Made by a program: the position numbers and the translations under genes. Positions 32,158 through 42,986 of a DNA stretch of 64,000 nucleotides are shown here, piece by piece. Positions within the stretch are counted from its first letter, which is position 1; each line of letters starts with the position of its first letter. The stretch lies in assembly GCA_963675745.2 (NCBI GenBank), contig CAXXWX010000019.1, forward strand, positions 64,001 through 128,000. The letters are read 5' to 3'. The DNA comes from Phycisphaerae bacterium (GTDB lineage: Bacteria; Planctomycetota; Phycisphaerae; UBA1845; Fen-1342). The notes under the pieces were generated by a model. That model made no database searches. It was given only the letters and a program-made list of their open reading frames with translations, and was not told the DNA's origin.

Positions 32158-34353
32158 CTACGGCTGGTTGAGTCGCGCCTCGACCTGCTGGAGCAACATT
32201 GCTGACTCGGTGCGCGTTGCATCAAGGGCCAGTGCGGCGCGCAGTGCCTCGGCGGCTTCGGGTAGCTCGGCGAGTCTGTAATGCATGACGCCGAGGTTGT
32301 GAAGCGTGGCCACGTCGCGCGGCCGCTCGACGCGCGCACGCACAAAGTAGTCGCGCGCGGCCGCGTAGTCGCCGAGCTTAGACGCGATCGTGCCCAGATA
32401 ATAAAGGGCATCGGCATCACGCGGCGCGATGCGCAGAATGTGGTCATACTGGTCGCGCGCCGCCTCGAATTGTTGCGTGAGCAGCAACAGGCGGGCATAT
32501 GCGGCGCGTAACGCCAAATCGTCGGGAGCCAGTGCCACAGCGCGGGCGAACAACTCGGCGGCGCGCGCGGGTTTACCACGCGCCTGTTGAGTTTCGGCGA
32601 ACATGGCGAGCAGTTTGTAGTCGTCGGCGTGCCGCGCGACGGCGGGCTCCAGGACGGCGGCGGCCTGGTCGAACTGGCGGGCAAGTATGAGCATCTGGGC
32701 CACTCGTCCGATCAGGCCACGATTGTCGGGGTCGGCGCCTATGGCGCGCTGGTACTCAACAAGCGCCTCCGCCGTGCGCCCCTCGGCCTTGAGCATGTTA
32801 CCGAGCTCGATTCGGTGGGGCGTATCGCCGGGCTCATACTCGAGACCGGCCCGGCAGGTTTTAATGGCGGACTGGCGATCGCCCAACTGCTGGTACGCGT
32901 ATGTCTGGCCAAAAAGCACGCCCGACGGCACGCGCACATCGAAGCCACACAGGCGATTTACGCTCCCGAGGGTGAACCCGACGAGCAGGGCCAGCACGAC
33001 GGCAACCGTCGTTCGCGGATATGAACGCCATTGCCAGGCGCGCATCAACACCCACGCCGCCGCCACCACCAGGATCGGGATGGCGGGCGTGCGAAAGCGG
33101 GGGGAATACCAGAAGAACGCCGTCACAAACACGGGCACAAATAACAGCAGCCATTCTGGGCCGTAGCGCAGCGGCCGGCACAGCAGAATCAGCATCCCGA
33201 CCAGGGCCGGCGCGACGACCAGGGGCGTGGTGAGCGGCATCAGGCGTAGCCAGCGGTTGAAGCCCAGCATCATCTCGATGGTGGGTTGGTAGATATCGCC
33301 ATAATGGCGTGAGGAGACAAACCCGTAGAGTTTACGGCTGACCAGCCACAGAAATGTCGCCGGGTTGTCACGCCAATACTGCACCGCCTGGTCGCGGAAA
33401 TAGCGGTCAACCGCCTTCCAGGTGGCATGGCGGCCGGTTTTCTGCTCGTAAACGCGAGCGGCGTCGGCGTGCATGAGGTCGCGGCGCGTGCTGATCTCCG
33501 GCAGCGGAGCATAGACGCCTTCGGCACCCGGGTGATTGCCGAGTCGCAGCGTGATGCCGCCCACGGCTTGCACGGGGAATAGTTCGCCGCTGGCATGGAG
33601 GTTGTGCAGCGTGGCCGGCGCGATGACTATCAGGGCTGTTGCGGTCGGCAGTGCGGCTTTCCATAGTGTGTGGGGCTCGCGTCGCCGGCTCAGCAGCAGC
33701 CATAGCGGCACAAGTCCCAGCAGGAGCAGGGCGGGGGCGTAGGCCAGGCAGAGCAATCCGACGGCGCCGCCGGCCAGCAGGTGGCTGAGCGTGGTGGCCC
33801 GGGTTTGCAGCCGGACGAAAGATGCCCAGGTCACGGTTACCAGCAGCAAATGCAGTGAACTGGCGAGGATGCGCAGTGAGGACGAGGCCGGCTCCTGCAT
33901 GAGCAGCAATATCGCGGCGGCCACGAGCCCGACGCGCGCGCTGAAACGCCGACGGCACACCGAGGCCAGCAGCCAGGCGGTTGCCAGGTCGGACAGCAAC
34001 TGGAGCACGTAGACGGTGGTGAGTCCGCCGCCCACGGCGCGGATGGCTCCCAGAACGTAGGGATATAGCGGGGCGGAGAAGAAGGGGGCGTCCTGGATCA
34101 ATCCGCCGGTGCTGATGCGTTCGGCCCAATCCCAGTAGACCGCGGCATCGTTAAGCGGCACCTGTGCCAGCGGGTTGGTGTTTACGTACACGCTGAGAAC
34201 GATGAGGCGGCAGGCCAGGCTAAGCAGGCACATCGCCGCCAGGATCAGCCGGAACCGTCGCGCGGCACCGAGCTGTTCCTGCGGCGGCTGACTGGCATCG
34301 GTGGCAGATGACGTGACAGCGGCTGGCCGATTCTTGTCTGTGCGTCTGCCCAT
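32158..34353 (-). CDS. GT39/PMT-like membrane glycosyltransferase with C-terminal TPR repeats
   Basis: DAAVYWDWA, APLYPY, many TMs, SPRFRTP, several TPR repeats. Confidence 0.75.
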   Translation of the reverse strand: MGRRTDKNRPAAVTSSATDASQPPQEQLGAARRFRLILAAMCLLSLACRLIVLSVYVNTNPLAQVPLNDAAVYWDWAERISTGGLIQDAPFFSAPLYPYVLGAIRAVGGGLTTVYVLQLLSDLATAWLLASVCRRRFSARVGLVAAAILLLMQEPASSSLRILASSLHLLLVTVTWASFVRLQTRATTLSHLLAGGAVGLLCLAYAPALLLLGLVPLWLLLSRRREPHTLWKAALPTATALIVIAPATLHNLHASGELFPVQAVGGITLRLGNHPGAEGVYAPLPEISTRRDLMHADAARVYEQKTGRHATWKAVDRYFRDQAVQYWRDNPATFLWLVSRKLYGFVSSRHYGDIYQPTIEMMLGFNRWLRLMPLTTPLVVAPALVGMLILLCRPLRYGPEWLLLFVPVFVTAFFWYSPRFRTPAIPILVVAAAWVLMRAWQWRSYPRTTVAVVLALLVGFTLGSVNRLCGFDVRVPSGVLFGQTYAYQQLGDRQSAIKTCRAGLEYEPGDTPHRIELGNMLKAEGRTAEALVEYQRAIGADPDNRGLIGRVAQMLILARQFDQAAAVLEPAVARHADDYKLLAMFAETQQARGKPARAAELFARAVALAPDDLALRAAYARLLLLTQQFEAARDQYDHILRIAPRDADALYYLGTIASKLGDYAAARDYFVRARVERPRDVATLHNLGVMHYRLAELPEAAEALRAALALDATRTESAMLLQQVEARLNQP

Positions 34354-34543
34354 CGCGTACTCGCCCGGAACACAGCCTATCGGCGTGGCGCCGAATCGAC
34401 ACACGCAGATTATCGGCTTGGGGCGTTACGTGCCAGGATAGTCAACGGGGCACAGCGCGAGCGGCTTGGGCCGCAGGTATCCGGCGCGTGTTGTCGCGGC
34501 GGCGTCAGACTTGGCCATCGGCGCGGCGTGCGGCCAGTCGTGC

Positions 34544-35911
34544 TCAGTCCACTGTCTCCAGCAGTGCGGCCTCTGCCTGCACATGACGCCATCGATGGTC
34601 CGCCACTCGGCCGGCGCATTCGTTCAGTTCGCCCGCGACGGCGTTCCAGGTTGATTCGCCTACCCGGCCGGTGTCGGCCGATTCGACGGTTGCCGGGTCG
34701 GGTGAGAAGCGGCCGGCGACAATCGCCTCACCGATCTGGCGATACGCTTGCCGGAAGGGCATGCCCTGCCGTACGAGATCGAGGGCTGCGTGCGTGGCGT
34801 AAATTTCCGGCCGCAGCGCCGCGGCCATGCGGTCGGCGTTGAGCTTGAAATCGGCGAGCACGCGGCCGGCGGCGGTCAGCATGTCCACTAGCTCATGCGC
34901 CGTGCGTATGGCGGGTTCCTTGGTCAATTGCAGGTCGCGATGATAGCCGGAGGGGAGTTTTCCGCTGACCCATTCCAACTCGGTCAGTCGCGCGCGAAGG
35001 CGCGCGCCGCGCGCCCGCAGCAGCTCCAGCACGTCCGGGTTTTTCTTCTGCGGCATGATTGATGAGCCGGTCGTCATGTCGGCGGGCAGCTCGAAGAACC
35101 CGTACGCCGGACTAGCGAATAGCAGCATATCGCAGCTCAGTTTTTCCAACAGCGCGCCGATGTCGGCGGCGACGCGCAGGAAGTACTTCTCCATGCGGCC
35201 GCGACTGTTTTGCACGTCGACCGGACTACGCTGCACGCGCCGGAAGCCGAGCAGCGCGGCGGTATAGTCTCGATCGAGCGGCAGCGGCACGCCGAAGCCG
35301 GCGCCGGTGCCGAGCGGGCAGGCGTCGAGCCGGGTGAGCAAATCGAGCCCGGCATACATTTGCTCGAGGGCGGCTTCGATGACGGCGTGCAACCACTGCC
35401 CGACGCTGGACGGCATTGCCAGTTCCATGTGCGTGTAGCCCGGCATGGCGAGTGCGCCGTCGCGGCGGGCACGCCGAAGCGCGATGCGGCCTAAGTCGGC
35501 CAGCAGGTTTAGCCAGGCCAGCGCGTGGTTTCGCATGAACAAGCGCATCGCCGTCGCGACCTGGTCGTTGCGCGAACGGCCGGTGTGAATCTTCTCGCCG
35601 GCGCTGCCGCACTCCGCGATCAGCCGTGCTTCGATGGCGGTGTGGCAATCTTCCAGCTCGGCGGGGATTGGGAACGTACCGGCCAGAGCGTCACGGTCGC
35701 ACTCGGCCAGGGACCGCAGCAGCAATTGCAGCTCTTCGGCGCTGAGCAGTCCGGCGCGATTTAGCGTACGGGCATGTGCGGCGGAGCCCAGGCAATCCCA
35801 GTGCAGGAGTTGCAGATCCCAATGTGGATCGTCACCGACGGTGAACCGGTGGGTTGCCGCGTCGAGGCCGGTTCCCTTTTCCCAAAGCCGTGCCGGCGCT
35901 GGTTTGGTCAT
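34544..35911 (-). CDS. argH: Argininosuccinate lyase
   Basis: IHTGRSRNDQV, MPGYTH, TGSSIMPQKKNPD. Confidence 0.95.
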   Translation of the reverse strand: MTKPAPARLWEKGTGLDAATHRFTVGDDPHWDLQLLHWDCLGSAAHARTLNRAGLLSAEELQLLLRSLAECDRDALAGTFPIPAELEDCHTAIEARLIAECGSAGEKIHTGRSRNDQVATAMRLFMRNHALAWLNLLADLGRIALRRARRDGALAMPGYTHMELAMPSSVGQWLHAVIEAALEQMYAGLDLLTRLDACPLGTGAGFGVPLPLDRDYTAALLGFRRVQRSPVDVQNSRGRMEKYFLRVAADIGALLEKLSCDMLLFASPAYGFFELPADMTTGSSIMPQKKNPDVLELLRARGARLRARLTELEWVSGKLPSGYHRDLQLTKEPAIRTAHELVDMLTAAGRVLADFKLNADRMAAALRPEIYATHAALDLVRQGMPFRQAYRQIGEAIVAGRFSPDPATVESADTGRVGESTWNAVAGELNECAGRVADHRWRHVQAEAALLETVD

Positions 35912-37032
35912 TGCACTCGGCCTCCCGCGTTGGTGTGCGCGGCCACGGCAGCCGGGCCGGCGCCGCGCGCCATACGCTCGAAGTATGCCAACGCGCAGAG
36001 CTGATAGCCGGCCGCACCCCGCGCCAGCTCGTCGGAGCACACGTGTTCGTCTGGTGTATGTGAGCGCGAGGAGTCGCCGGGGCCGATCTTGATCGTCGGA
36101 ATCCCCGCGAGGTAGATCATGTCGCTCATGGAGGGACTACCGGCGGGGGTGACACCCGACAGGGCGCTGCAAACCGCGGCGACAATCGGCGCGGCCGGGT
36201 CGGTCTCCACCGGTATGAGTCTGTCGCTGTGGATCAGCAATTCGCATTGCAGGTATGCGCGCAGGCGTTGATACAAGTCCGCGTGTGATTCGCGTGGCGT
36301 GGTGCGCACATCGAGGAAGAACTCGCAGTGGTCAGGGATGACGTTGCGAGCACGGCCGCCGCTGATCATGGTCACGTGGCCTTGGCAGGGGCCGAGCAGC
36401 GGGTGTGACGGTCCCCAATCGAAGTCTCGCAGCCGCAGCAACTGCGCGGCGGCGTTGAGAATGGCGTTGTCGGCGTTTGTCGGCGCGACATTCGCGGGGT
36501 GGGCCGCGCGGCCGCGCGCGATCCCACGCAGGATCAGCAAGCCGCGTTGGGCGATCATCGGCTGCATGCGCGTCGGTTCGCCGACGAGTGCGGCGTCGAG
36601 CGGTTGGAGTTGATCCACGATCGTGCCGAGTCCGGCGCCGCTGTTTTCTTCTTCCCCGGTCAGGGCCAGCACCAGCGTACCGCCGAGACGTTCGCCACGG
36701 TCGAGCCGCGCTTTCAGAGTTAGTGCGGCTTCGATCAACGTGACAACGCAGCCCTTGGCGTCGTTGGCACCGAGGCCGATCAGACGCTCACCTTCGTGGC
36801 GGAGCGTGAACGGATCGCCGGTCCAGCCTTCGCCGGGTGGAACGGTGTCGAGATGCGAATTGAAGAGCAACCGCGGCCGCGGCTGATCGCCGATTTCGCA
36901 CCAGAGGTTGTTGCCGCTGCGCTGCACGCGCAGGCCGGCGTCACACAGCTCGGCGCTCACTGCGTCGGCCAATGCGGCTTCCTGGCCCGAGAGGCTGGGC
37001 ACGGCGACCAATCTCGCCAGGCGCGGGATCAC
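35908..37032 (-). CDS. argE: M20 deacylase (ArgE-like; probable N-acylcitrulline deacylase)
   Basis: NSHLDTV, GLGANDAKG, GEE, GEPT, GPG..SHTPDE; sits inside the arg operon; GTG start overlaps the argB stop. Confidence 0.85.
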   Translation of the reverse strand: MIPRLARLVAVPSLSGQEAALADAVSAELCDAGLRVQRSGNNLWCEIGDQPRPRLLFNSHLDTVPPGEGWTGDPFTLRHEGERLIGLGANDAKGCVVTLIEAALTLKARLDRGERLGGTLVLALTGEEENSGAGLGTIVDQLQPLDAALVGEPTRMQPMIAQRGLLILRGIARGRAAHPANVAPTNADNAILNAAAQLLRLRDFDWGPSHPLLGPCQGHVTMISGGRARNVIPDHCEFFLDVRTTPRESHADLYQRLRAYLQCELLIHSDRLIPVETDPAAPIVAAVCSALSGVTPAGSPSMSDMIYLAGIPTIKIGPGDSSRSHTPDEHVCSDELARGAAGYQLCALAYFERMARGAGPAAVAAHTNAGGRVQ

Positions 37033-37967
37033 GCTTGCACCGTTTGGTTTTCGAGCAGCGGTTGTTCGGCGGTCCGCTGCCGGACCAGCAGCGTGCCGCA
37101 GCCTTCGTTGGTGAAGACTTCGCTCAGGATCGTGTCGGGGGCTGTGCCGTTGACAATGTGGGCGCGCGGCACGCCGCCGTTCAGGGCGTCGGCGCACGCG
37201 GCGAGCTTGGGTAGCATGCCGCCGCTGACGTGGCCGGCATCGATCAGCGCGCGCAGCTCCGCGAGATCGAGGTGCTCCTGCAACGTGCGCGGGTCGTTGA
37301 CGTCGAGCAGCACGCCATCGACGGTGCTGACCAGAAAGTACTTCGCGGCGCCCAGCTTGATCGCGATTCGCGCGGCGACGGTGTCGGCGTTGATGTTCAG
37401 CACCTGCCCGTTCTCATCCGCGGCGAGCGAACACACGACCGGCACGAACTCCTCGGCCAACAGGTTGCGCAGCAGGGCGACATCGACCTGCTCCACATCG
37501 CCCACGTGTCCGAAGTCGATCTCGCGGGTCTCTCCGCTGCCGGGGTCGTTTACCGCCTGACGCGGCCGGCGCGAGGCGGCGACCAGACCGGCGTCGATCC
37601 CGCTCAGACCGACCGCGGAGACGCCCGTGCGGCGAAACGCCGCCACCACGTCCGTATTGACCGTTCCCGCCAGCCCCATCTTGACGACTTCGAGGGTGTC
37701 GGTGTCGGTGATGCGGCGGCCGGCAAAGAGGTTGGGCGCGAGGCCGAGCCGCTTGCTGAGTGCGCTGACCTGTTCGCCGCCGCCGTGCACGACGACGAGC
37801 TGGATGCCCAACTGTGCCAGCAGGGCCAGTTGATCGACCAGATTGTCCAGCACGCGGCCGGGCGAGCACAGTTGCCCGCCGAGCTTGACCACGAACACGC
37901 GTTTTCGGTACGCGCGGATGTATGGCGCCGCGGTACGCAGGGCGTTGAGATTGTGCTGCAAGTGCAT
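37029..37967 (-). CDS. argB: Acylglutamate kinase
   Basis: VVKLGG, VHGGG, GRRITD, NINAD, GGMLPK; no fused acetyltransferase domain. Confidence 0.93.
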   Translation of the reverse strand: MHLQHNLNALRTAAPYIRAYRKRVFVVKLGGQLCSPGRVLDNLVDQLALLAQLGIQLVVVHGGGEQVSALSKRLGLAPNLFAGRRITDTDTLEVVKMGLAGTVNTDVVAAFRRTGVSAVGLSGIDAGLVAASRRPRQAVNDPGSGETREIDFGHVGDVEQVDVALLRNLLAEEFVPVVCSLAADENGQVLNINADTVAARIAIKLGAAKYFLVSTVDGVLLDVNDPRTLQEHLDLAELRALIDAGHVSGGMLPKLAACADALNGGVPRAHIVNGTAPDTILSEVFTNEGCGTLLVRQRTAEQPLLENQTVQA

Positions 37968-37985: not shown

Positions 37986-39002
37986 CTAATCGCACTCTGC
38001 CTGTGGCGGTTGGCCGAGCAGTTCGTTCAGGATTGCGGCCTGCGTCCACATGCGGTTTTCGGCCTGATCGACGACCACGCTCCGGGGGTCGTCGAGCGCG
38101 GCGTCGGCGATCACGACGTTTCGCCGAACGGGGAGGCAGTGCATCAGGATGGCGTCGGCGTGCAGGTGGTCCGGCGTAACGGTCCAGTTCGCATGCTCGG
38201 CAAAACTCTGCTTCTGCGCGGCCGCGTCACCGTATAAGGCCGCGCTGCCCCAGCTCTTGACGTAGACGACGTCCGCAGCGCGACAGGCGGCGGGCTGGTC
38301 GTGCGTTACTTCCAGTTTTGTGCCGGCGTCGTGGCACCAGGTGGAAGCGCGGTCGAGAATTCCGGCAGACAGCTCGTAGCCGGGCGGATGGGCAATCGTG
38401 ACCTGCATTCCCGCGGCGGCGGCGGCCAGCACGGCCGAGTGCGGAACCGCCATCGGCAGACCCTTTGCCTGCGGGGCCCAGGCAAGCGTAAAGCGTTTGC
38501 CGGCGGTGCCGGAGAGCTTTTCGTCGATCGTCATCCAATCGGCCAGACCCTGGCAGGGGTGTTCGGCGGCGGATTCCATGTTGATCACCGGTACGGTGGC
38601 GAACCGGCCGAACGCGCGGATTACCTGGTCGAGCGCGTCTTCGGCGGCATTACGCATGGCGGCAAACGTTCGCACCGCCAGCGCGTTGCCGTAGCGGCTG
38701 AGCACGGGCGCGGCTTCGCGGATGTGCTCGGCGGCGGGGCCATCCATCACCACGCCGTCGCGATACTCTAGCTGCCAGGTGTCGCCACCGACGTTCAGGC
38801 AGATGGCGTGTCCGCCGTAACGCAGCATGGCGGCCTCGAAAGAGGTGCGTGTGCGCAGCGACGGATTGAAGAACACCGTTGTGAGGATTCGTTCGCGCAG
38901 CGCCGCCGCCGTGGCGTCGCCGCTCTTCAGACAGCGGGCGGCTTGCACGAGTTGCGCGAGGTGCTGCGGGTCGTAGTCGAGCATACTGAGGTAGTGTTGC
39001 AT
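37986..39002 (-). CDS. argF: N-acylornithine carbamoyltransferase (AOTCase/SOTCase family, ArgF')
   Basis: FNPSLRT, MDGxxxEH, HPCQ, WAPxxKxLPxAV, KSW, HCLPVRR. Confidence 0.9.
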   Translation of the reverse strand: MQHYLSMLDYDPQHLAQLVQAARCLKSGDATAAALRERILTTVFFNPSLRTRTSFEAAMLRYGGHAICLNVGGDTWQLEYRDGVVMDGPAAEHIREAAPVLSRYGNALAVRTFAAMRNAAEDALDQVIRAFGRFATVPVINMESAAEHPCQGLADWMTIDEKLSGTAGKRFTLAWAPQAKGLPMAVPHSAVLAAAAAGMQVTIAHPPGYELSAGILDRASTWCHDAGTKLEVTHDQPAACRAADVVYVKSWGSAALYGDAAAQKQSFAEHANWTVTPDHLHADAILMHCLPVRRNVVIADAALDDPRSVVVDQAENRMWTQAAILNELLGQPPQAECD

Positions 39003-39112
39003 GGCTAGGCTGCCTCCAGTTGGCGCAGGGTGTCGGCCAGGTCGTCCAGTACGGAAAGCGGCGCGTTCAGAGCGTGCGGCGTGTTTGTTTTCGCGCTATT
39101 CATGGAAACCTG

Positions 39113-40177
39113 CTATAGGGGGCGTGCCGCCGGACTCCAGAGACCGGCGGTCTCCGGCAGGTCGCACATCAGGTTCATGTTCTGGATGGCGGTACCGGAC
39201 ATTCCTTTTCCGAGGTTGTCGAGCGCTGCCATCGCGACGACCTGCCGGTCACTAACCGCCACGCAGAGATCACAGAAGTTCGAGCCGGCGACGTTTTGCA
39301 GTTCGGGTGGCTCGTCGAGGATGCGAACAAACGGCCGACCTGCGTAGAACGCTTCACAGCGCTGCTTCATCTGCCTGGTGTCGGATGGCTCGCGCAGCTC
39401 GAAATGGGCGGTTATGTAGATGCCGCGCGTGGCGTCGATGCTCTGCGCGACGAAGCTGGTTTGCAGACGTCGGCCGGTCGGGTCGCCGAGCGCCTGCAAA
39501 ACCTCCGGCTCATGTTGATGGGCCAGCGGTTTGTAGGCGCGGAAATTCGATCGCCGCGTCGCGTGGTGCGTCGTTTCCTTGAGCTGACGCCCCGAGCCGG
39601 ACGAGCCGGTTTTCGCGTCGATGACCAGCTTGCCGGCGGCGCTCTCGTCGATCAACGGGGCGGTGGCGAGGATGGCGCCGGTCGCCAGGCAACCCGGATT
39701 GGCGATGAAGCGGGCGCCTTGAATGTCTTGGTGGAACAACTCCGGCAGGCCGTAGACGAACTGCGATCGACGCTCGGGCAGCCACGGCGTATGCGGATAG
39801 TGCTGTTCGTGAGTTGGCTGGTGAGTTAGACGCAGGTCGCCGGAGAGATCGACGATGCGCAGCCTGTCAGTGCCGCTCGCGCCGTCCGCCGATTGCAGCA
39901 GTGCCTCGATCGCCGCCGCACTCGCACCGTGCGGCAACGCTGAGAATACCACGGCCGTTTCGGCGTCGAGCAGCGCGGGCAGGTCAATCTCGGGCGACAT
40001 GCGCAAGTCGTAAAAGCCGCGCAGATGCGGGTGTACATCGCCGATGGCCGCACCGGCGTGGGAAGTGGTCGTGACGGCGACGACGCGCGCGGCGGGATGC
40101 TGAACCAGCAGGCGCAGCAGCTCACCGGCCCCAAACCCGCTGCCTCCCAGAATCGCGACGTTTACGGGCATGCTCAT
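39113..40177 (-). CDS. argC: N-acetyl-gamma-glutamyl-phosphate reductase
   Basis: GGSGFGAGEL, ALPHG, DLSGDLR, YGLPE, ANPGC, HQHEPE, DNLGKG. Confidence 0.95.
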   Translation of the reverse strand: MSMPVNVAILGGSGFGAGELLRLLVQHPAARVVAVTTTSHAGAAIGDVHPHLRGFYDLRMSPEIDLPALLDAETAVVFSALPHGASAAAIEALLQSADGASGTDRLRIVDLSGDLRLTHQPTHEQHYPHTPWLPERRSQFVYGLPELFHQDIQGARFIANPGCLATGAILATAPLIDESAAGKLVIDAKTGSSGSGRQLKETTHHATRRSNFRAYKPLAHQHEPEVLQALGDPTGRRLQTSFVAQSIDATRGIYITAHFELREPSDTRQMKQRCEAFYAGRPFVRILDEPPELQNVAGSNFCDLCVAVSDRQVVAMAALDNLGKGMSGTAIQNMNLMCDLPETAGLWSPAARPL

Positions 40178-41238
40178 GACGCCACCACCGTTGCACGCTG
40201 CGCGTCTAGCCGGCACGCGATGAACTCGCCCAGATTACGGCCGCTGGTGCGCGCATTGATCGCCTTCAGTTTCAACCGCTGTTCGATGTAGCGCACTCCG
40301 ACCGCATTGTCGGTGGCGGGTCCGCTGATGACGTCGATGTCGAGACCAAACTGCTCGTGCAGGATTCTCTTGGCGCCCCAGGCGCCGACCGGATCGTTGG
40401 CGCACATGACGACGGCCGCTCCGAGGTGCATCAGGTCGGCGTCGGCGAGTATTTCCGCCACACCATACTCGCCGTGCACGCCGTCGCCGAGCTCCGCCAC
40501 GATGACGTCGGCGCCCAGTTGCGTGACGTGTGTGAAGAGAGCGCGTGTCACGCTGACGGCGTTGTGGCTGCTCGTCGAGGCCGCGCCGGCGTCGCCGAAC
40601 GAGACCGCCCAGCGCGCGCCGTAGTCCATCATCTTGAGCGTATCACGGCGCAATGCCACGCCCGTCAGCTTACAGCCGGCGACCGCGTTGCCACGTCGGG
40701 CCAGCTCGCGGATCAACTGGGCCGCGGCGGTTGTTTTGCCGCTGTTCATGCAGGTTCCCGCCACGTAGATGACCGGCACCGGTGGCGGGGCGGTGTCCGC
40801 GACAGGGATGGCGTTCATGCCGATATGAGCCGGCACACCTTCGCGCTTCTCAAACTGGGGAAAGACAAGCACGCTGCCGAGGATCTCGACGTCGAATGGT
40901 GGTCCGACGTCGGGGTTGATCGACGTGCAGTGTCCGATCACGCCGCCGAGGTTCAGCATTTGTAGCCGATCGCCGACGCGGACCTGCGCCGGTACGACGC
41001 CGGTATAGCCGTGCAGTGCGCTGCGCGCTCCGAGCACGCCGGCGATGATGTCGCCGTCGTGCAGCGTCACAAGCCGGCCGTGGAGGTCTTCGAGCTGGTT
41101 GTACGCGGTTTTCTCGCCCAGCACGCGGCCGGCGACGATGTAACCTTCGCGCGCGACGACGGTCTCGATCAGGCGGGCGTCGCGTCGCAACGGCACGTTG
41201 CCGGTGACGGAGGCAATCTTGTCAATCCAGACCCGCAT
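40174..41238 (-). CDS. DUF1611-like P-loop protein embedded in the arg operon
   Basis: GTCMNSGKT, KLTG..RD, FGDAG..ST, ELGDG; overlaps both argG and argC. Confidence 0.7.
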   Translation of the reverse strand: MRVWIDKIASVTGNVPLRRDARLIETVVAREGYIVAGRVLGEKTAYNQLEDLHGRLVTLHDGDIIAGVLGARSALHGYTGVVPAQVRVGDRLQMLNLGGVIGHCTSINPDVGPPFDVEILGSVLVFPQFEKREGVPAHIGMNAIPVADTAPPPVPVIYVAGTCMNSGKTTAAAQLIRELARRGNAVAGCKLTGVALRRDTLKMMDYGARWAVSFGDAGAASTSSHNAVSVTRALFTHVTQLGADVIVAELGDGVHGEYGVAEILADADLMHLGAAVVMCANDPVGAWGAKRILHEQFGLDIDVISGPATDNAVGVRYIEQRLKLKAINARTSGRNLGEFIACRLDAQRATVVAS

Positions 41239-42442
41239 CACACCGACTCCCACGCATCCGGGCCCGGGCCAGCAGCCAATCCTGCAAGCCATAGATCTTC
41301 GCGAAGGCGGCCGCTTCCGCTCCGGTCCACAGCGCGCTGCCTTCGCCGTAGAGGCCGATCTCCGGATCAAGCAGCGAGTAAGGGCTGGTGCTTCCCAGAA
41401 CCGTGGCCTGCCCGGCGGTCAGCCGCACCTGCACGTCGCCGCACACGGGCTGCTGCGAGGATTCGAGGAAGGCTTCGATGTCGCGCATCAGCGGATCGAA
41501 GAAGCGGGCCTCGTGCAAGGCCGCCGCATACAACTCTCCCAAGGTGCGCTTCCAGGTAAGCTGCTGGCGCGACAGCACGAGCTTCTCCAGCTCGCGATGG
41601 GCGGCGATCAGCAAGGTGGCCGCCGGCGCCTCGAAGGCCACGCGTCCCTTGATTCCCAGGATTGTGTCGCCGACGTGGACGCCGCGACCGACGCCGTATT
41701 CGCCGGCGCAGTTGTCCAGGAGACCGATCAGCCGGATCGGATCCAGCGCCTCATGATCCAGCGCTACGGGCACGCCACGCTCGAAGCTGATCGTCAGCTC
41801 CCGCGCATCGCGCGGTGCCTGCGCTGGCGAGCGCGTCAGTACATAGGCTTCCTCGGGCAGCACGCCGTCGCTGCGGTGGGTTTCGGCGCCGCCGATGGTC
41901 ACGCCCCACAGCCCCCGATTGATCGAGTACTTCGTGGTTCGGGCCTCAATGGTAATTCCGTGCTCGGCGAGGCACGCCGTCTCCTGCTCGCGGGACAGCG
42001 CCTGACTGCGCACCGGCGTGAGGATCTCCACGTCTGGCGCAAACACGCGAAACGCCACGTCAAACCGGATTTGGTCGTTGCCGGCGCCGGTCGAACCGTG
42101 GGCCAACGCCTGGGCGTCGATCTCGGTGGCGTACAACGCGCAGCGTTTGGCCTGCACCATCCGTTCGGCGGAGACGCACAGCGGATACACGTCGCCGCGG
42201 AGGGCGTTGGCGAAGATCAGGTGCTTGAGATAGTCGTTGAAGAGCTCGTGGCGCGCGTCGATCGTGACATGCCGCGCGACGTTCAGCGAATGGGCCCGGG
42301 CTTCGACCGCCGCGACTTCGTCAGCGGCGTTGTCGGTCTGGACCATCACGGTGTGTACGTCGTAACCCTGCTCGGCGAGCCAGACCGCGCAGTAGGTTGT
42401 GTCGAGGCCACCTGAAAAAGCCAGAACCGCTGTGCGAGTCAC
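41222..42442 (-). CDS. argG: Argininosuccinate synthase
   Basis: LAFSGGLDT, AHGSTGAGNDQIRF, GIKGRVAFEAP. Confidence 0.95.
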   Translation of the reverse strand: MTRTAVLAFSGGLDTTYCAVWLAEQGYDVHTVMVQTDNAADEVAAVEARAHSLNVARHVTIDARHELFNDYLKHLIFANALRGDVYPLCVSAERMVQAKRCALYATEIDAQALAHGSTGAGNDQIRFDVAFRVFAPDVEILTPVRSQALSREQETACLAEHGITIEARTTKYSINRGLWGVTIGGAETHRSDGVLPEEAYVLTRSPAQAPRDARELTISFERGVPVALDHEALDPIRLIGLLDNCAGEYGVGRGVHVGDTILGIKGRVAFEAPAATLLIAAHRELEKLVLSRQQLTWKRTLGELYAAALHEARFFDPLMRDIEAFLESSQQPVCGDVQVRLTAGQATVLGSTSPYSLLDPEIGLYGEGSALWTGAEAAAFAKIYGLQDWLLARARMRGSRCDAGLD

Positions 42443-42444
42443 CG

Positions 42445-42939
42445 TTATGTCTCCGTGTGTGGCACTTGTCCGTCGGGGCCTGCGTTCGTGTGGCCCGATG
42501 GCGCGCCTTTGAACAGGGCCAGGACACGTCCCTGGGCCGCCCGGCTGCGGACCGCGACAAAGACCGTGTCATCACCCGCCACGGTGCCGGCGATCTCGGG
42601 CACGTTTTTGCCGTCGAGCTCGACAGCCACCGTCGCGGCCCCACCGGGCGGGGTTTTGATGACGACCAGATTGGCTCCTATCGGCTCAATCGAAACGATT
42701 AATTCACTACTATGTAAACCGAGACCATTCGCGTCGCCCAGGGTGGTGACGCGTGAGGCAGGGATATAGCAACCATCCACGCGTACCAGCCCCAACTCAC
42801 GCACGTCGCGGCTGATACTGGCCTGGGTGACCTGAAAACCCTGGTTTCGCAGAAGTGTTGCCATTTCTTCCTGGTTGGCCAGTCGCCGCCGCCTTACCAA
42901 CTTCAGAAGGGCCGCCTGCCGCGTTCGTCGCTCTTTCAT
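42445..42939 (-). CDS. argR: Arginine repressor
   Basis: NQEE, VTQASISRD, KTPPGGA, GTVAGDDT. Confidence 0.93.
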   Translation of the reverse strand: MKERRTRQAALLKLVRRRRLANQEEMATLLRNQGFQVTQASISRDVRELGLVRVDGCYIPASRVTTLGDANGLGLHSSELIVSIEPIGANLVVIKTPPGGAATVAVELDGKNVPEIAGTVAGDDTVFVAVRSRAAQGRVLALFKGAPSGHTNAGPDGQVPHTET

Positions 42940-42950
42940 TGGGCACCATT

Positions 42951-42986
42951 TCTGAATAAACCATAGAAATTGCAAGTATATGCATA
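42951..42986. promoter_or_regulatory. Candidate ARG box upstream of argR
   Basis: AT-rich imperfect palindrome TGCAAGTATATGCA (42971..42984) plus a TGAATAAA half-site at 42953. Confidence 0.65.

Follow-up and report, generated by a model that had tools for sequence, protein, structure and literature searches.

A gene between argG and argC in a Phycisphaerae arginine operon is predicted to encode an N-succinylglutamate-forming enzyme, possibly an ATP-dependent ligase

The first step of arginine synthesis is carried out by two-domain ArgA, by ArgJ, by a Xanthomonas-type kinase-synthase fusion or by the LysX/ArgX route; these systems occupy the same pathway slot as the gene described here, called X, and occur where X is absent. 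Yu et al. reportedly found in 2023 that a further enzyme, DgcN, acetylates D-glutamate with acetyl-CoA. DgcN and the DUF1611 proteins (PF07755, NF041892; structures 7XRJ, 2OBN and 2G0T) are similar to X in length and in their C-terminal P-loop fold. BioD activates its substrate by phosphorylation beside Lys37, and CbiA and CobQ are BioD-related ATP-dependent P-loop amidoligases. According to the accessible part of a recent study, BioD is a homodimer that needs Mg and NTP (10.1101/2023.03.26.531482).

The family of X has already been predicted to be an alternative N-succinylglutamate synthase by GapMind (PLoS Genet 2026, PMC13759103), the accessible text of which gives its experimental evidence as 'no' and counts the family in 109 genera. 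The supplement of that article contains plasmid maps for the Steroidobacter gene (pALF12) and for E. coli argA, and results for these plasmids were not found in the accessible part of its text. GapMind was the only paper naming the family accession among the literature matches listed, and the sole match for an ATP-dependent N-succinylglutamate ligase of arginine biosynthesis. The two papers listed for DUF1611 were unrelated. The ATP-ligase reading and the unmatched N-terminal domain discussed below were not found in the literature covered, which leaves out the majority of subscription journals as well as the paper on DgcN.

By its sequence and surroundings X is a member of this predicted alternative ArgA family (A0A127FCT3). 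The two proteins have 354 and 357 aa, respectively, and the traits by which the family is delimited in the accessible GapMind text were all found for X: an arg operon, exclusion of ArgA (no ordinary ArgA found in the genome) and an ArgF' with the succinyl signature (A, P, S or V). The pALF12 insert, as far as its published map allows translation by eye, matched the motifs of X along the whole length. Proteins whose P-loop has the Steroidobacter form share 41-46% full-length identity with X, and two of them fall in the arg-operon clade (SH-aLRT 96 in a quick tree of 50 rows). The present case differs in that X comes from a Phycisphaerae branch, while in the accessible GapMind text the exclusion was made against Pseudomonas ArgA and not ArgJ, and the mechanism was limited to DgcN likeness. 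The role itself being already predicted in print, what is added here is the contrast of ATP-site motifs with DgcN and the non-membership in DUF1611.

Profile searches of the ORFs in the window (the whole stretch of 64,000 nucleotides that was analysed) gave the gene order argR-argG-X-argC-argF'-argB-argE-like-argH on the minus strand (Table 1). The first 17 nt of X are also the last of argG, and at the other end the stop codon of X (TGA) and the ATG of argC at 40177 share the sequence ATGA. ArgB has 312 aa and matches the kinase part alone of the ArgA model (positions 3-281 of 429). No argA, argJ or GNAT gene is found within the operon, and argD is also absent from it. The preliminary description had given the same gene order, the overlap of X with both neighbours, the absence of argA, argJ and GNAT genes and an ArgB without a fused acetyltransferase, and on all these points the Pfam and NCBIfam matches agree with it. 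The argE-like M20 protein does not reach the cut-off of any NCBIfam model listed for it. The palindrome upstream of argR was labelled after the ARG box consensus; promoter and terminator scans of the locus were at chance level.

Table 1. Features of the arginine operon in the window, with the profile matches that name them
Feature	Position	Strand	Assignment
argR, arginine repressor	42445..42939	-	Pfam PF01316 and PF02863 above cut-off
argG, argininosuccinate synthase	41222..42442	-	TIGR00032, 318 bits (cut-off 268)
X, predicted N-succinylglutamate-forming enzyme	40174..41238	-	open frame, 354 aa
argC, N-acyl-glutamyl-phosphate reductase	39113..40177	-	TIGR01850, 329 bits (cut-off 234)
argF', N-acylornithine carbamoyltransferase	37986..39002	-	NF003384, 391 bits (cut-off 288); best PDB match 3L02
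argB, N-acylglutamate kinase	37029..37967	-	TIGR00761, 220 bits (cut-off 151)
argE-like putative M20 deacylase	35908..37032 (start taken from the overlap with argB)	-	PF01546 above cut-off
argH, argininosuccinate lyase	34544..35911	-	TIGR00838, 290 bits (cut-off 279.5)
ARG-box-like palindrome, over a -10-like hexamer, upstream of argR	42970..42985	-	

Two further observations concern the layout. In relatives the place of the gap between argC and argF' (window positions 39003-39112) is often taken by a class III aminotransferase, a family found in 41 loci, whose best match in the genome studied is about 31% identical and lies at C26:518940. The same short gap is seen in several relatives (L009, L013, L014, L016 and L021-L024), and so another aminotransferase likely fills the argD step. 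After argH (32158-34404, minus strand) lies a gene whose membrane-bound product matches the PMT_2 glycosyltransferases weakly and ends in TPR repeats, in place of which several relatives have a gene for the large chain of carbamoyl-phosphate synthase.

The genomic context was analyzed for the best 80 of 585 confirmed X loci, a pattern used to find them including D199 of X. These loci come from Planctomycetota, Acidobacteriota, Myxococcota, Bdellovibrionota, Pseudomonadota, Gemmatimonadota and other taxa. Arg genes were present in all 80 of these best loci: argC in 75, argG in 71, argF in 65, argB in 62, argH in 60, argR in 51 and argE in 50. In 75 of the 80 argC lies within 800 nt after X, and the remaining five loci end at most 375 nt from X. 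One locus (L058) belongs to a record titled as a Klebsiella pneumoniae MAG; its X groups tightly with those of uncultured 'Proteobacteria' and argF' is present, and the species label looks doubtful. Fused X-ArgB, X-ArgC and X-ArgG forms were not counted, since they are few, each on a single contig and with differing partners, and therefore likely frameshift artefacts.

In a sample of 251 genomes of the class, the one studied included, the X profile matched 22, sixteen strongly (E < 1e-170, again with the genome studied) and six weakly. ArgJ was found in 197 of the 251 genomes, a count that includes one genome (G249) marked unpublished. The preliminary description had proposed to check whether X co-occurs with arg operons lacking argA and argJ, and it does: ArgJ was found in none of the 16 X-bearing genomes of the class, and neither ArgJ nor a full ArgA in any of another 50 genomes with X (those of 50 among the 56 loci L026-L081), four of which matched the ArgA model weakly and through GNAT alone. 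X without the other enzyme is thus seen in 66 genomes for ArgJ and 51 for ArgA, these being incomplete MAGs of related organisms that do not count as independent. Thirty-eight genomes of the class have neither X nor ArgJ; 28 of them also lack argC, and ten have it. Inspection of the regions in five of these ten gave a LysX-type cluster in G138, a kinase-NAT fusion adjoining argC in G177 and G194, and no nameable first enzyme in the inspected regions of G215 and G024. Seven genomes of the family of these last two (G016, G024, G047, G061, G082, G215 and G240) have argC, in two copies in five of them, with no ArgJ and no X; as no first enzyme was found in these seven, such gaps could be filled by unseen genes. 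In the order of the genome studied, 22 of the 23 genomes without X in families f1-f3 are also without argC, which suggests that the whole arginine operon was repeatedly lost, or patchily gained, there.

Within the genome itself, which is 91.4% complete and 6.1% contaminated, X is present as a single copy and ArgJ was not found, the control being detected in 10 of 14. ArgB is the sole match to the ArgA model TIGR01890, and the Xanthomonas-type NAT domain PF04768, detected in the positives G177 and G194, has no match. GNAT profiles gave 26 matches in 24 frames, none of which matches the ArgA models at 1e-8; 16 of the 24 fall in no NCBIfam family at this limit, so a short stand-alone ArgA may be among them. 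A genome search for argA, argJ and GNAT-type synthases, which had been suggested earlier, is thereby negative for ArgJ, two-domain ArgA and a kinase-fused synthase, and leaves these 16 frames without a family. The sequence of X shows no match to the first-step enzymes already known (ArgA, ArgJ, the kinase-synthase fusion and LysX/ArgX). From the context and the exclusion with ArgJ and ArgA we predict, with good confidence, that X fills the missing first step of arginine synthesis. Of the initial proposal that X is a non-orthologous replacement of ArgA or ArgJ, the role is thus kept as a prediction and the DgcN-type family is not. If the role is true, many uncultured bacteria, and some cultured ones such as the carriers Steroidobacter and Geothrix, would have their gap in arginine synthesis closed by X.

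The acyl group was addressed through ArgF'. The protein of the window has Ala91 at the specificity position, aligned to the Ala of 3L02; other Xanthomonas chains among the matches listed have Ser or Glu there. According to the accessible GapMind text, an ArgF' whose residue 92 is A, P, S or V is specific for N-succinylornithine (PMC13759103). Among the ArgF matches neighbouring X, 57 of 64 have one of these four residues, five have T, one has Q and one is a canonical ornithine carbamoyltransferase. With Ala91 in ArgF' the arginine pathway is likely succinylated, and the acyl group is likely succinyl and not acetyl, which narrows the earlier 'N-acetyl- or N-succinyl' to the second. The canonical carbamoyltransferase belongs to a Bdellovibrionales MAG (L027:1881-7459), where X-argC-argD is followed by this gene and a second argR, and in whose genome no ArgJ and no close ArgE orthologue were found; it may represent a recent graft, or an X acting in a route without ArgF'.

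The preliminary description regarded X as a DUF1611-type protein because of its motifs. The translation of X does contain GTCMNSGKT, KLTG and DAG; KLTG, however, is not a motif of DUF1611/DgcN proteins, of which three with solved structures read ATGQTG. The traits of that group, the GK[M/R] variant of Walker A, ATGQTG and EGQG, are not found in X, which has GKT, KLTG and ELGDG. X has no Pfam match at 1e-3; at a looser limit CbiA, MobB and DUF1611 were touched through the P-loop alone, and PF07755 reached 14.4 bits (E 0.026) against a gathering cut-off of 25 bits. Weak matches to PF07755 were obtained for 14 of 61 X homologues (best E 1.3e-5), the DgcN model of NCBIfam did not match X at 1e-3, and the profile-profile comparison of the X family with three DUF1611 proteins gave a probability of 3.2% (E 0.014). 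Judged by these profiles and motifs, X is not a member of the DUF1611/DgcN family, and what stands of the DUF1611-type assignment is the C-terminal P-loop fold. The ESM Atlas label 'DUF1611 domain-containing protein' was not counted, the naming being automatic and the clusters so named sharing no Pfam family.

Searches of the PDB by sequence gave no matches with X alone and three, all by chance, with a close X alignment; a deeper X profile matched the P-loop stretches of FtsY, BioD and MobB only, and no DUF1611 chain. In the protein search, 5264 of 8000 scored candidates were matches, the named ones being hypothetical proteins from Phycisphaerae and other planctomycetes, and at E 0.001 the large unnamed family related to X has 1686 clusters.

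The predicted structure of X (pLDDT 93.5, pTM 0.91) consists of an all-beta N-domain (residues 1-146 approximately) and a P-loop C-domain (147-349). In a fold search against 48,161 chains, in which the best matches fall mainly on residues 147-349, DUF1611 proteins took the first two places, 2G0T with Z 17.7 and an rmsd of 2.9 (179 aligned) and 2OBN with Z 16.0, followed by ApbC (Z 15.7), BioD 1A82 (Z 15.3, rmsd 3.3, 181 aligned) and CTP synthase (Z 14.9). DgcN 7XRJ ranked seventh (Z 14.9, rmsd 3.2, 181 aligned, 14% identity), in a tie with BioD and CTP synthase. Foldseek with the whole model placed SRP GTPases, HypB and BioD first, DgcN being absent among the matches listed. The N-domain modelled alone was again all-beta (pLDDT 93.8) and matched nothing at Z >= 5 among the 48,161 chains (best 3.0, no proof of a new fold), with no DUF1611 chain at Z >= 2. 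As the matches fall mainly on the C-domain, 'DUF1611-like' is true of the fold of one domain alone; the structural likeness to DgcN and DUF1611 anticipated in the preliminary description was found for that domain (2G0T, 2OBN, 7XRJ), with no DUF1611 match listed for the N-domain.

Conservation of the putative active site was surveyed in 61 diverse X homologues with 27-56% identity to X. K168, K190 and E249 are invariant in all 61, position 169 is always T or S, and position 199 always D or E. The X family profile aligns Walker A with Lys15 and Thr16 of M. tuberculosis BioD, K190 with Lys37 and T192-G193 with Thr41-Gly42, followed by the Asp run, the BioD residue numbers being counted by hand; according to the accessible part of the structural literature these residues line the active site of M. 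tuberculosis BioD (PMC9932657). E249 may be the counterpart of the BioD Walker-B Glu, by its position after a strand. X thus has an intact Walker A Lys-Thr, a strand-2 Lys, a downstream Asp and a Walker-B-like Glu, and resembles BioD in the fold (1A82) and in the Thr-Gly after the strand-2 Lys; it differs in that the identity is at most 17%, a beta domain of 146 residues is added and the pathway is another one, and X is not a BioD. In DgcN 7XRJ, 2OBN and 2G0T, by contrast, Met or Arg follows GK, and Ala stands at the position of K190. Among 80 DUF1611 loci, 73 were parsed and have M (72) or K (1) after GK and A (67) or P (6) before TGQ, a count that is partly circular because the loci were found with patterns holding these motif positions. 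X further differs from DgcN and DUF1611 proteins in falling below the Pfam cut-off and perhaps in its N-domain, which is predicted to be all-beta, and one DUF1611 locus (L129) adjoins an epimerase-like gene, X being found in arg operons instead. The simplest account would be that turnover of Mg-ATP has been retained in X but not in DgcN.

We therefore put forward, tentatively and at slightly less than an even chance, that X is an ATP-dependent succinate:L-glutamate amide ligase. Mg-ATP would bind at K168, T169, D199 and E249; the carboxylate of succinate would be phosphorylated beside K190, as carbamate is in dethiobiotin synthetase; and the amino group of glutamate would attack the acyl phosphate to give N-succinylglutamate, ADP and Pi. 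The net reaction would be succinate + ATP + L-glutamate -> N-succinylglutamate + ADP + Pi, and the product would then pass through ArgB, ArgC, an aminotransferase, ArgF' and the M20 deacylase. Against this reading, the ATP-site residues of X are also kept in distant paralogues outside arg operons, which together with the Foldseek matches to SRP GTPases and HypB speaks for nucleotide use and not for amide ligation as such; moreover, the two best folds are DUF1611 proteins, and DgcN, the one relative to have been characterised, is held to be an acetyltransferase.

These last points favour instead a DgcN-like, non-GNAT succinyl-CoA:L-glutamate N-succinyltransferase, in which the P-loop would hold the phosphates of CoA. 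A first enzyme of the DgcN kind is also the reading of the preliminary description and, by analogy, of GapMind. All evidence for the first-step role applies to it equally, DUF1611 proteins head the fold matches with DgcN at rank 7, C163 in the P-loop of X matches in place the Cys of the GTDCSVGK region of DgcN, and according to the accessible GapMind text Foldseek finds the Steroidobacter protein weakly similar to 7XRJ (PMC13759103). However, X keeps the Walker-A Thr and the strand-2 Lys that are missing from DgcN-type proteins, the profile-profile probability for the three DUF1611 proteins is low, and the N-domain search holds no DUF1611 chain at Z >= 2. The catalytic motifs thus suggest a ligase that depends on ATP more than they do an acyl-CoA transferase of the DgcN type, and we consider the transferase rather unlikely. 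An assay with acyl-CoA only, or the rescue of an acetyl-pathway E. coli argA mutant, could miss an ATP-dependent succinate ligase.

X might otherwise be an NTPase with an accessory or regulatory function in the pathway, such as partnering ArgC or ArgB, with N-acylglutamate supplied by a stand-alone GNAT encoded elsewhere. It keeps its place immediately before argC as the order of the other genes changes, its best Foldseek matches are regulatory NTPases, and both the 16 GNAT frames without a family and the weak GNAT-only matches in four of the 50 X genomes would leave room for such an enzyme. An accessory protein would, however, be expected at times beside ArgJ or ArgA, which was never seen in the 66 and 51 genomes, respectively, and the recurrent clusters scanned in the 80 loci included no GNAT family; we hold this explanation to be improbable.

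Finally, an ArgJ-like X that returns the succinyl group from N-succinylcitrulline or N-acylornithine to glutamate, or acts as deacylase where ArgE is absent, is consistent with the presence of X in the stead of ArgJ in the class sample, with the coupling of X to a canonical ornithine carbamoyltransferase in L027, with the absence of ArgE also from S. denitrificans according to the accessible GapMind text (PMC13759103) and with the lack of a close orthologue of the window ArgE in 13 of 22 X genomes (11 with best E > 1e-20, two with none), which were picked for the absence of argE at the locus and so selected on the counted feature, but it is improbable, as argE adjoins X in 50 of the best 80 of 585 loci, the one studied among them, all five argE-less genomes checked have three to nine other M20 peptidases, and transacylation needs no intact ATP site.

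Returning to the ligase reading, if it holds, a textbook step would gain a new type of enzyme, and the large unnamed family a lead to its function. A wider proposal, which we regard as speculative and as falling somewhat short of an even chance, is that X is the founding member of a family of P-loop amide ligases that make N-succinylglutamate with ATP and without CoA, their N-terminal beta domain having no clearly known fold and their non-arg paralogues being amide ligases as well. If true, it would imply a new first-step chemistry of arginine synthesis in more than 100 genera, and the paralogues near ATP-grasp and ABC transporter genes would be amide ligases that have escaped recognition in natural-product clusters.

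The six weak homologues in the class sample lie outside arg clusters, near ABC transporters, an ATP-grasp and decarboxylase pair or unrelated genes, and four of them co-occur with ArgJ. A distant homologue (26%) with the same ATP-site residues as X is encoded on a Priestia megaterium plasmid (L127:736-8900, NZ_CP085446.1). The phosphonate-like cluster to which it belongs also encodes a carbamoyltransferase, two ATP-grasp proteins, ThDP enzymes and an M20 peptidase, and contains a gene of the PEP mutase family. Three others are found directly before ABC transporter genes (L126:3893-6663, L121:7331-9705 and L124:4749-7638), one of them being labelled DUF1611 domain-containing by NCBI.
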